This document shows positions 11,159 to 14,138 of a stretch of 32,352 nt of DNA, piece after piece; within the stretch, counting starts at the first letter, position 1; each line of letters begins with the position of its first letter. The translations under genes were made by a program, and so were the position numbers. The notes beneath the pieces were generated by a model that was given only the letters and a program-made list of their open reading frames with translations, searched no databases and had not been told where the DNA came from. This stretch comes from Pseudomonadota bacterium. GTDB taxonomy: Bacteria > Pseudomonadota > Alphaproteobacteria > RF32 > CAG-239. The stretch spans positions 1 through 32,352 of the forward strand of contig CAKJXZ020000019.1 of the NCBI GenBank assembly GCA_918234285.1, read 5' to 3'.

Positions 11159-13222
11159 TTACAGAATAAATCTGTGCATCAGCGCCGAAACATCGGCCAA
11201 CAACGCTATACGGTTTTGGCGTTCGCGCAAGTCGTCCGAAAGCACCATATTATTATCAAAGAAAGTATTAATCGGTGCACAAATCTCGCTCATAACCTTC
11301 ACAAAATTCATATAATCCTTTTGCTCGAGGTATTGCTCCGCCGCCGCTTTGGCCGCAACAAATGCCTCCGCCGCGCGTTTCTCGTCCGCATTGTTTACCA
11401 GAGCCATCGCAAATTCGGTTTGCTTCTTTTCCTTCATCAAATTATCGATACGCTGCATGGTTTGCGCAAACAACTTAAACGGCTCGGCCGTCAGCAAATT
11501 ATTGATAACCTGCGCCTTAACGTCGATTTCCGCCACATTAATCGTCGCCAAATCAATCCGGTTGATGACGTCGGTTATCGAATAATGTAAATCTTCATTC
11601 AGCATCACCGAGAGGCGCTGTTTGATAAAGCCGATTACATAATCAACAAAGTCAGCTTTGCTCATATTTTCAGCCTTATAATAGCCTTCATACAAATCGG
11701 CAACTTCGGCCACAAAATCAGCCAATGCGATATTAAAGCCGAATTTACGGACAATCAGCAAAATACCGATTGTCTGGCGGCGCAACGCAAACGGGTCCTG
11801 CGAGCCGGTCGGCTTCAAATTAACCGCGCACAAACCCAAAATGGAATCCAATTTATCGGCAATTGCCATAACGGCACCGAGTTCGGTTTCCGGCAATCTA
11901 TCGCCAGCAAAACGCGGCAAATATTGTTCTTCAATAGCTTTGGAAACACTCTGCTCATAGCCTTCTTCCGCTGCATAAATACTTCCCATAATGCCTTGCA
12001 ATTCGGAAAATTCGCCCACCACGGTCGAAACCAAATCCGCTTTCATAATCGCCGCCACCGTATCGATTTGCTTATCCGCACCGAGCGCCGATTTTTGCGC
12101 CAACAAATGCGCCAACGCGGCAACACGTTTCATTTTTTCGGCATAACTTCCCAACTTGGTCTGAAACACCACTTGCGGCAATTTCTTCGCTTTATCCGCC
12201 AACGTGGTCTTTTTATCTTCGTGATAGAAAAACTCGCCGTCTTTCAAACGCGCCGTCAACACACGCTGATTGCCTTTGGTAACACCGTCAATACCATAAT
12301 CATCGCCGTTACGCACAAACACAAAACAGTTGGCCAATTTACCGTTACGATATGCCGGAAAATAGCGTTGATGGTCTTTCATCGGCGTAATCACAATCGG
12401 GTCCGGCATCGCCAAAAATGCCTCATCAAAATGACCGAGAGCCGCCGTCGGATATTCCACCAAATTCACGATTTCATCAAGCAAACTCTCGTCAATCGGC
12501 ACCTGAATATCATTCTTTTGTTCCAAATCCTGAATTTGCTGTAAAATCAACTTCTTGCGTTCATCTTGGTTCACAATCACAAAAGCTTCTTTAGCCTTGG
12601 CGAAGTAGTCGTCAACCGATGTAATCGTATATTTTTTATCCGCCAACATTCTGTGTCCTTGCGTAAAATCGGCCGCACTTAAAAATTCCAGTGCAAAATC
12701 CAACCGCCGCGTCCCCAAAAACGCCAGCAACCAACGTATCGGGCGAATATATTTGCCGACAAACACATTCCAACGCATCGGATTCGGCTGATATACCGAC
12801 ATAATCAAATCCGGCAGAATCTTTTCCAAAATTTCGCCGGTATCTTTCGCCGCCGTTTTCTGCACGGCAAAGATATATTCAACCCCCTTGATATCCTTAA
12901 CGAAAGTATCATCCAAAGTCAGTTTGCGACCGGCCAAAAAGCCCTCCAACGCCTTGGTCGGTTTGCCGTTTTCATCATACGCACTCTTTTGCGCCGGACC
13001 TTTGACTTCCACTTCCTGACCGGCCACCTGCAAAGCAACGTTTTCGATATATAAAACCAAGCGGCGCGGTGTATAAAAAACCTTCAATCCGGCAAATTCG
13101 ATTAAATTTTCCGCCAAAGCCTTCTGCGTGTTGTCGCGCAGACTTTCAGCCATTCTTTTGACATACTGTGCCGGAATTTCCTCTATTCCGATTTCCAGTA
13201 AAAACTTTTCACTTGCTGTCAT
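11159..13222 (-). CDS. glyS: Glycine--tRNA ligase beta subunit
   Basis: FLLEIGIEEIP, TPRRL, IRPIRWL, LVEYP, HQRYFP, EFSELQGIMG, PTGSQDPFALRR. Confidence 0.97.
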   Translation of the reverse strand: MTASEKFLLEIGIEEIPAQYVKRMAESLRDNTQKALAENLIEFAGLKVFYTPRRLVLYIENVALQVAGQEVEVKGPAQKSAYDENGKPTKALEGFLAGRKLTLDDTFVKDIKGVEYIFAVQKTAAKDTGEILEKILPDLIMSVYQPNPMRWNVFVGKYIRPIRWLLAFLGTRRLDFALEFLSAADFTQGHRMLADKKYTITSVDDYFAKAKEAFVIVNQDERKKLILQQIQDLEQKNDIQVPIDESLLDEIVNLVEYPTAALGHFDEAFLAMPDPIVITPMKDHQRYFPAYRNGKLANCFVFVRNGDDYGIDGVTKGNQRVLTARLKDGEFFYHEDKKTTLADKAKKLPQVVFQTKLGSYAEKMKRVAALAHLLAQKSALGADKQIDTVAAIMKADLVSTVVGEFSELQGIMGSIYAAEEGYEQSVSKAIEEQYLPRFAGDRLPETELGAVMAIADKLDSILGLCAVNLKPTGSQDPFALRRQTIGILLIVRKFGFNIALADFVAEVADLYEGYYKAENMSKADFVDYVIGFIKQRLSVMLNEDLHYSITDVINRIDLATINVAEIDVKAQVINNLLTAEPFKLFAQTMQRIDNLMKEKKQTEFAMALVNNADEKRAAEAFVAAKAAAEQYLEQKDYMNFVKVMSEICAPINTFFDNNMVLSDDLRERQNRIALLADVSALMHRFIL

Positions 13223-13235
13223 CTAAAAAACTCCT

Positions 13236-14078
13236 TTAGCACTCTTGCGACAAATACGATTTGGCGATTTCTTTCATCAAATTACGAATACGCGCAATAT
13301 AGTTGGCACGTTCGGTAACGCTGATGGCTCCCTTGGCATCCAACACATTAAACATATGCGAACATTTCAGCGCAAAATCATACGCGGTGTAGATATTGCC
13401 CAAAGCGGTCAAACGCTTGGATTCCGTTTCATAATTGTCAAAATCGGCAAACAGCTGCTTCTCGTTGCACAGCTCAAAACAATATTTTGAGTGGTCGTAT
13501 TCGCGGTGATGATAAATATCGCCGTATTTTTCCGCCGGACTGTATTGCAAATCATACACGTTTTCCACGTTTTGCAAATACATCGCAATGCGCTCGAGAC
13601 CGTAAGTAATCTCCGCCGTAATCGGCTTGCAGGTCATACCGCCGATTTCCTGGAAAAAGGTAAATTGCGTAATTTCCATACCGTCGAGCCATACTTCCCA
13701 ACCCTTACCGAAAGCGCCGAGCGTCGGGGACTCCCAGTTATCTTCCACAAAGCGAATGTCGTGCTCTTTTTTGTTAAAGCCGATATATTCCAAACTCTTG
13801 ATATAAATATCCACAATATCAATCGGCGACGGTTTGATAATTACCTGAAACTGATGGTGCTGATACAAGCGGTTCGGGTTATCGCCGTATCTGCCGTCGG
13901 CCGGCCGGCGTGACGGTTCCACATAAGCGCGCGCCACCGGCTTTTCACCGAGCGCACCGAAAAAAGTCAGCGGATTCATGGTACCGGCGCCCTTTTCCAC
14001 ATCGTAAGGTTCGCCGATGGTACAACCTTGTTCCAACCAAAAATCCTGCAATTTGCGTTTTAATTCCTGAAAATTCAT
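13236..14078 (-). CDS. glyQ: Glycine--tRNA ligase alpha subunit
   Basis: [43 protein letters not shown] at 14078. Confidence 0.97.
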
Positions 14079-14109
14079 TAAGTGCCTCACTTATTTATAA
14101 TTCTGCGGG

Positions 14110-14138
14110 ATTGTACCCACAAAAAAAAGTCATGTCAA
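14110..14138 (-). promoter_or_regulatory. Sigma70 promoter of glyQS
   Basis: TTGACA(14138-14133)-17 bp-TACAAT(14115-14110). Confidence 0.8.

Follow-up and report, generated by a model that had tools for sequence, protein, structure and literature searches.

A glyQS locus beside a later-inserted operon at a tRNA-Trp hotspot probably encodes a replacement housekeeping glycyl-tRNA synthetase in an RF32 alphaproteobacterium

We analyzed the 32,352 nucleotides of contig CAKJXZ020000019.1 (assembly GCA_918234285.1, positions 1 to 32,352 of the forward strand; Alphaproteobacteria, RF32, CAG-239), here called the window. The subject of this study is glyQS, the gene pair for the two subunits of a heterotetrameric glycyl-tRNA synthetase (GlyRS), which lies in the window next to a six-gene operon of biosynthetic appearance. 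In a preliminary description made from the sequence alone, this glyQS had been regarded as an acquired copy serving the neighboring operon, either as a self-resistance target or as a donor of Gly-tRNA. The genes and their promoter are as follows:

11159-13222, minus strand: glyS, intact gene for the beta subunit of the heterotetrameric GlyRS (687 amino acids), with a PF02092 match of 621.1 bits and a DALR domain
13236-14078, minus strand: glyQ, intact gene for the catalytic alpha subunit (280 amino acids counted from the ATG), with a full-length PF02091 match
14110-14138, minus strand: sigma-70-type promoter of glyQS, TTGACA-17 nt-TACAAT, near-consensus (11 of 12 matches)

GlyQ matches PF02091 with 441.9 bits (cut-off 27) over model positions 1-276 of 278 and NCBIfam TIGR00388 with 436.7 bits (cut-off 361.45), while GlyS, whose gene adjoins glyQ after a gap of 13 nt, reaches 718.2 bits against TIGR00211 (cut-off 300). 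In the list of open reading frames (ORFs), glyQ begins with a GTG at 14090 (13236-14090, minus strand). The ATG at 14078 is more likely to be the true start and the GTG unlikely, since the proteins of relatives and those in databases start with MNFQ and the ATG is preceded by a GAGG at a distance of 8 nt.

The -10 box of the promoter ends 31 nt upstream of this ATG, in agreement with the distance of about 30 nt given earlier. A promoter scan of the window as a whole returned four promoter-like sites compared to a mean of 5.3 in shuffled sequences and hence no excess, so that the call depends on the quality of the site and on its conservation. The identical promoter sequence is present in G054, the closest relative that does not have the operon, and because colinearity with G054 runs through the promoter, this constitutive-looking promoter belongs to glyQS rather than to the operon. 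A T-box leader (RF00230), which had been said to be missing, was indeed not matched at gathering score in the window, where tRNA-Trp is the sole RNA family at that score. Bacillus subtilis is the model for Bacillota glyQS with a T-box leader. The window shares the signature motifs of such loci and differs from them by a 31-nt leader with no T-box; two Negativicutes glyQS loci that we scanned likewise have no T-box within 3 kb.

The host, an uncultured gut/rumen alphaproteobacterium, is represented by a metagenome bin (G000) of 2.0 Mb that is 100% complete with an estimated contamination of 2.6%; the other genomes compared here are likewise metagenome bins. A single glyQ match was obtained in G000, with no dimeric GlyRS above the TIGR00389 cut-off, and a second glyQS, for which a search had been suggested, was thus not found. 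Among 50 genomes of the genus, 42 carry a dimeric GlyRS above the cut-off, and glyQ at 90-99% identity is present in exactly the remaining eight (G000, G001, G054, G045, G062, G005, G003, and G008). None of the 50 genomes carries both this glyQS and the dimeric gene. Outside the genus, GlyQ was found in none of 127 genomes from 19 other genera of the order, and the dimeric GlyRS, counted with a strict threshold that we set, in 57 of 61 genomes across the order, with all 16 of its sampled genera represented. Other families of the class have an ordinary alphaproteobacterial GlyQ with 49-56% identity to that of the window. The ancestral GlyRS of the order would, from these distributions, be of the dimeric type. 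The preliminary description had made its case depend on whether this is the only GlyRS and is orthologous throughout the host lineage irrespective of the operon: it is the only one, and it is orthologous with or without the operon within the glyQS-bearing clade, but not for the whole genus. Compared to GlyQ, GlyS is less conserved, with 94-96% identity to the orthologues in G001 and G054 (96% in G054) and 60-71% to those in G045, G062, G005, and G003; the low identity between lineages fits a weaker constraint on the beta subunit.

Two genomes showed peculiar glyQ genes. G041 (locus L043, G041:C44:686-4519) contains a dimeric GlyRS plus a divergent GlyQ that is 58% identical to the one in the window, reads GAAGVGW and MIEPCRRPTDA, and is followed by a long ORF; it may represent an additional, aberrant glyQS, or the contig may be a contaminant. 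In G008, glyQ (G008:C34:23612-24453) consists of two frames separated by a TGA, due to either a frameshift or an assembly error. It is the only GlyRS gene found in this bin, which is 89% complete with 6% contamination.

The surroundings of glyQS are informative with respect to the order of events at this site. The relevant features are:

10590-11102, plus strand: YkuD L,D-transpeptidase gene (PF03734), part of a 4 kb segment that accompanies glyQS and is missing in G007
11114-11133, no strand: GC-rich, terminator-like hairpin between glyS and the convergent YkuD gene, resembling the hairpin after tRNA-Trp
14153-22345, minus strand: inserted six-gene operon, right-hand boundary approximate
22362-22420, no strand: att-like direct repeat made of the tRNA-Trp 3' end and the downstream hairpin (59 nt, 93% identical to 22531-22589)
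22571-22646, minus strand: tRNA-Trp (CCA), identified by ARAGORN and Rfam, with the insertion hotspot on its 3' side

In G054, whose GlyQ is 98.6% identical to that of the window, the succession of thrS, an esterase-like gene, YkuD, glyS, glyQ, tRNA-Trp, a binding-protein gene, gltX, and cysS is kept without the operon. DNA colinearity between the window and G054 continues through the glyQS promoter, ends at 14152, and resumes at the tRNA-Trp repeats. Since G054 is colinear on both sides and has no operon, the operon is an insertion of about 8.2 kb in two species. The att-like repeat holds the last 19 nt of tRNA-Trp, its two copies being 169 nt apart, and duplicated tRNA-Trp 3' ends are also present in G054, G001, G007, and G009. 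G054 has three copies, the third of which abuts the glyQ promoter. G007 and G009 have a dimeric GlyRS, the tRNA-Trp, the repeats, and a hydrolase cassette in common with G054, and no glyQS; the segment from YkuD over glyS and glyQ to the repeat (4.05 kb, G054 6676-10726) is opposed there by 1.08 kb with an unrelated ORF in G007. Conversely, the dimeric gene of G007 is flanked by two genes that adjoin each other in G000, with 140 bp between them. Because different relatives hold the hydrolase cassette, the glyQS-YkuD segment, or the operon at this place, the site behaves as an insertion hotspot with changing cargo, and the att-like repeats presumably are its recombination sites. The core of the hairpin (ACCGCCC-[GA]AAC-GGGCGG) occurs three times in the 2.0 Mb genome, each time in the window (11116, 22375, and 22544), and the hairpin at the glyS end matches just about 24 nt of the repeat. 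As in genomic islands associated with tRNA genes, the cargo lies 3' of the tRNA, direct repeats of the tRNA 3' end are present, and the cargo varies among relatives; unlike in these islands, there is no adjacent integrase.

The cassette itself encodes an alpha/beta-hydrolase and is located between repeat copies in G054 (L045, 10746-11513) and G007 (L169, 6585-7358). It is absent from the window, which has the operon in that place.

We also compared the window GlyQ with 100 other GlyQ sequences, of which 93 are from outside the genus clade. The five strings quoted in the preliminary description were all found, and their assignment as Bacillota-type was borne out: EKGAGT[ML], Y[VM]EPS, and R[LV]YQHHQFQV occur in 78 of 78 loci labelled Bacillota, and the full set occurs in none of 15 alphaproteobacterial GlyQ sequences from other families of the class, which read E[VM]GAGTF, VQPS, and RxQHYYQ. 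The unusual residues, likewise noted correctly, sit in GAFGKGW and in the ten-residue string found where QFTYFQQxGG is usual (17 residues together). Outside the clade, the L of GLGW is L in 90 of 93 sequences (one each with R, V, and I), and neither the Y of FTYFQ nor the second Q of FQQ varies (93 of 93 each). In Aquifex numbering, the usual W, L, Y, and Q at positions 123, 125, 141, and 144 of heterotetrameric GlyRS are F, K, F, and E in the window. These residues are not specific to genomes with the operon. All seven full-length GlyQ copies of the genus have the five motifs in identical form, and five of these copies come from operon-free genomes. E144 (FQE) is specific to the genus clade. 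Conceivably, K125 and E144 form a salt bridge.

In other respects, the enzyme resembles the solved heterotetrameric (alpha-beta)2 GlyRS from E. coli (7EIV), Aquifex (alpha subunit, 5F5W), and a lactic acid bacterium (8IE2), with the same two-gene layout, full-length family matches, and E-values of 1e-117 to 1e-106 for the best solved relatives. The residue lists in PMC4938167 and PMC8464048 name Thr39, Gln82, Gln84, Trp121, and Glu162 for the glycine pocket of E. coli GlyQ, and Thr-33, Gln-76, Gln-78, Trp-115, and Glu-156 together with the discriminating Thr-140 and Thr-158 for Aquifex. For ATP and Mg, the E. coli structure paper lists Arg76, Arg169, Asp67, Glu134, and Glu141. In alignments to 7eiv and 5f5w, all listed glycine and ATP residues are identical in the window GlyQ, namely T33, Q76, Q78, W115, E156, T140, and T158 as well as R70, R163, D61, E128, and E135. 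Tyr-141, replaced by F here, is described in the 2016 Aquifex paper as a conserved structural residue outside the active-site cavity, with Phe as the counterpart in alanyl-tRNA synthetase. Judged from its sequence, the window GlyRS looks catalytically competent, and glycylation of tRNA-Gly would follow from its status as the only GlyRS in a genome that is 100% complete.

The nearest named GlyQ sequences, found in a scan biased by the peptide patterns used, are from Negativicutes and other Bacillota (59-65% identity). A closer tier emerged among 5.8 billion proteins, where 23 metagenomic proteins are 68-76% identical. All 23 share GAFG[KR]GW, and thus K or R at position 125, and 21 of them also have TFFQ and thus F141. 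In 401 genomes of the class to which one labelled Bacillota locus belongs, no match was obtained at E <= 1e-128, which shows little. In a GlyQ tree of 59 sequences, the genus clade falls inside this subfamily with Shimodaira-Hasegawa-like approximate likelihood ratio (SH-aLRT) supports of 100 and 99, and the alphaproteobacterial GlyQ sequences group apart in a clade of their own (support 100). The long stem (2.48) of an initial tree that did not include the subfamily vanishes upon its addition. When the genus and alphaproteobacterial GlyQ sequences are constrained to one clade, the cost is 65.7 log-likelihood units in an approximately unbiased (AU) test with p-AU = 0.0005, the group having been defined by taxonomy and the test run after the tree was seen. 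GlyS identities of 38-42% to Bacillota and 28-37% to alphaproteobacterial loci, calculated over unequal lengths, are too weak for use as a criterion of origin. "Bacillota-type" is thus a fair term for the motifs. The GlyQ itself belongs to a distinct subfamily marked by GAFG[KR]GW and TFFQ, which is otherwise known from metagenomes and has no characterised member. Of the earlier proposal of an acquired copy, acquisition is thus supported by the AU test and by the restriction of glyQS to one small clade in an order with dimeric GlyRS, but we see a replacement and not an added copy.

Within the genus, rpoB was used as the species marker (DNA tree of 34 genomes with seven sampled glyQS genomes), and thrS was set aside as linked to the locus and discordant. 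The rpoB proteins of glyQS and dimeric species of the genus are 88-99% identical. All seven glyQS genomes fall into one clade of ten with a support of 100. Identity at third codon positions is 61.8% for glyQ and 64.3% for rpoB in comparison with G062, and 52.5% and 56.1%, respectively, in comparison with G005; since the values for glyQ are similar to or somewhat below those for rpoB, glyQ is about as old in the clade as the clade itself. The thrS and rpoB trees disagree on G013, G046, and others, with G013 being sister to G062 in the thrS tree and outside the clade in the rpoB tree, a discord that points to mixed bins or to recombination among the species of the genus.

Overall, we consider it very probable that glyQS is the only GlyRS of this bacterium and an ordinary housekeeping enzyme, that this Firmicutes-like type replaced the one-subunit enzyme of its relatives, and that the operon was inserted later. 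A glyQS of the separate, Bacillota-like GlyQ subfamily would have entered the ten-species clade by horizontal transfer and would now be the only GlyRS in eight species, where it would charge tRNA-Gly as an (alpha-beta)2 enzyme expressed from its own promoter without a T-box. In the window it would have come to lie at the tRNA-Trp hotspot marked by the repeated tRNA 3' ends, and the operon would have entered the same hotspot afterwards, only in the lineage leading to G000 and G001, with the tRNA repeats on one side and the glyQ promoter on the other. glyQS and the operon are neighbors by virtue of a common insertion site and not of a common function. How many transfers took place, and in which direction, is what we infer from these patterns.

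Several observations weigh against this reading or complicate it. Three positions of GlyQ that are otherwise near-invariant are changed in the window (L to K, Y to F, and Q to E). Only three of the 23 subfamily members carry a label, and these labels point to Clostridiales, Christensenellaceae, and Bacteroidia. Domain scans revealed no integrase or mobility gene between 9998 and 22733; the sole integrase of the window (28984-30150) belongs to a separate segment 6 kb away. No terminator-like site was found in a terminator scan between the operon and glyQ, and read-through from the operon into glyQS in G000 and G001 is possible, as is a functional benefit of their adjacency. Finally, the history within the genus was not simple. 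G046, G007, and G009, which have the dimeric GlyRS, are nested inside the clade next to G000, G001, and G054; their dimeric genes form a group of their own, about as far from the rest as in rpoB, and look vertically inherited, not newly regained. At least three changes of the glyQS trait are required on the rpoB tree, with starred branches forcing two of them. In addition, glyQS is found in three contexts, at tRNA-Trp (G000, G001, and G054), near tRNA-Cys (G045), and in a third one common to G062, G005, and G003.

Two versions of the replacement can be considered. The glyQS segment may have moved early among members of the clade, or repeatedly from one donor pool, displacing the dimeric gene each time. 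The three genomic contexts, the att-like repeats flanking the segment, the tRNA-Trp site that is empty in G007 and G009, and the discord between the thrS and rpoB trees argue for this version, to which we give close to an even chance; the lack of a mobility gene next to the segment and the limited match of the glyS-end hairpin to the repeat speak against it, and the divergence pattern fits vertical descent equally well. Alternatively, glyQS was gained once at the base of the ten-species clade, both types coexisted for long, and each lineage lost one of them. This version, which we rate as a serious possibility of somewhat less than even weight, agrees with the GlyQ tree within the genus, which matches the rpoB tree, with the similar third-position divergence of glyQ and rpoB, and with the vertical appearance of the dimeric gene in G007, G009, and G046. 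Under it, however, the dimeric gene would have been lost independently about four times and glyQS once or twice, and this version has to cope with three unrelated contexts and with the absence of any genome among the 50 that holds both types.

The adjacent operon consists of the following genes:

14196-15404, minus strand: DegT/PseC-type aminotransferase
15401-16822, minus strand: flavin adenine dinucleotide (FAD) oxidoreductase
16804-18924, minus strand: fusion of a GFO/IDH/MocA oxidoreductase with a kinase-like domain, 706 amino acids
18924-20186, minus strand: glycosyltransferase similar to CGA synthase (cytosylglucuronate synthase)
20191-20847, minus strand: methyltransferase, identified by domain matches
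20851-22071, minus strand: paralogue of seryl-tRNA synthetase (SerRS), identified by domain matches

Cytosylglucuronate synthase is the best NCBIfam match of the glycosyltransferase (3e-10), far below the cut-off. The SerRS paralogue scores 227.7 bits, below the serS cut-off of 301.65, and aligns from model position 83 onwards, so that most of the tRNA-binding arm is missing. From these gene types, the operon looks like an aminosugar or peptidyl-nucleoside-type pathway. As a lead we considered BlsK, which a review on the subject presents as a tRNA-dependent aminoacyltransferase in blasticidin S biosynthesis; no homology claim to the SerRS paralogue was drawn from it.

The operon and glyQS are distributed differently. 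The SerRS paralogue is present in two of the 50 genus genomes, G000 and G001 (97% identity), and the other 48 match it only via their housekeeping SerRS (28-31%). Co-occurrence with operon homologues, which had been proposed as a check, thus failed, as glyQS is found in eight genomes of the genus, and six of the species that carry it do not have the operon. The operon glycosyltransferase gave no match in five other genomes with glyQS, where the 706-amino-acid protein matched only paralogues with 26-31% identity. A scan of metagenomes for operon homologues returned only the contig of G001. In two other studies of gut metagenomes, contigs with 96% and about 93% identity extend over both glyQ and the operon, and because these independent contigs bridge the junction, the arrangement is not an assembly artefact and is stable in that lineage.

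These data bear directly on the roles that had been proposed for glyQS. AbmK (resistance) and VlmL (supply) are extra synthetase copies that travel with a biosynthetic cluster, and cluster-encoded resistant synthetases are a known strategy. The window glyQS likewise lies next to a biosynthetic operon, but it exists as a single copy and mostly occurs where the cluster is absent. If the operon made a GlyRS inhibitor, the altered glyQS could be the resistant target; this would account for the changes at near-invariant GlyQ positions and for the location of glyQ right beside a small-molecule-looking operon with a SerRS paralogue, a CGA-synthase-like glycosyltransferase, and a sugar aminotransferase. 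Yet there is no sensitive housekeeping copy to back up, the same residues and promoter occur in six species that do not have the operon, K/R and F are traits of the wider subfamily, the substrate-binding residues are unchanged, glyQS predates the operon at the site, and nothing points to GlyRS as the target of the product. We regard self-resistance as very unlikely. A supply role, in which the pathway uses Gly-tRNA or glycine activation and adjacency ensures co-expression by read-through, fares slightly better and is still improbable. Both units are on the same strand with a gap of 117 nt, the stop codon of the aminotransferase gene (14196) being 58 nt from the -35 box of glyQS, there is no apparent terminator between them, and the arrangement is kept in strains diverged by up to about 7% from three studies. 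On the other hand, glyQS has a strong promoter of its own that is identical in an operon-free relative, domain searches of the six operon proteins detected no aminoacyl-tRNA-dependent transferase family, the operon has its own amino-acid-activating enzyme in the SerRS paralogue, and the shared hotspot explains the adjacency.

That the contig or its glyQS was misplaced from a Bacillota genome by a binning or assembly error is hardly credible, even though all genomes are metagenome bins and G000 has some contamination. The genes around glyQS (thrS, gltX, and cysS) share 95-99% identity with their counterparts in genus relatives, three independent bins as well as contigs from other studies show this arrangement, the region has an even G+C content throughout, and the distribution is exactly complementary to that of the dimeric gene.

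The replacement of the relatives' enzyme by glyQS is a fine-grained case in which an essential synthetase has given way to a non-homologous one. PMC4938167 and PMC8464048 describe, in general terms, the patchy distribution and horizontal replacement of the two GlyRS types. Beyond the class II core, these types are not homologous. Here, the switch took place inside one genus, and the loci of both types are still recognisable in occupied and empty form (empty tRNA-Trp site in G007, empty dimeric-gene site in G000). For the operon, a false lead is removed, since the synthetase beside it gives no clue to the target of its product or to a tRNA-dependent step. The comparison also draws attention to a GlyQ subfamily with changes at conserved residues. 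It is conceivable, albeit rather speculative, that the two GlyRS types are interchangeable cassettes still segregating in a young gut and rumen clade of alphaproteobacteria, that the mobile GlyQ subfamily with K/R125 and F141 owes its spread to selection, with a GlyRS inhibitor in the gut community as one possible agent, and not to neutral replacement, and that landing at tRNA-Trp then let a peptidyl-nucleoside-like operon join.

Some further features of the window may be mentioned. Synthetase genes are unusually dense in these 32 kb, with thrS (2221-4152), glyQS (11159-14078), the SerRS paralogue (20851-22071), and gltX plus cysS (25907-28674). A segment of low G+C content (0.37) at 28984-32352 carries a tyrosine integrase gene (28984-30150), an N6 DNA methylase fragment, and a DUF3768 protein. 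This segment probably represents an integrated element of its own; at the corresponding position in G054, cysS is followed by a tRNA-Thr. A secreted-looking protein of 277 amino acids (7337-8170, minus strand) has no Pfam match and contains a long run of near-repeats rich in N, G, and T (GNNTGNN...), with homologues in relatives that are 68-88% identical.

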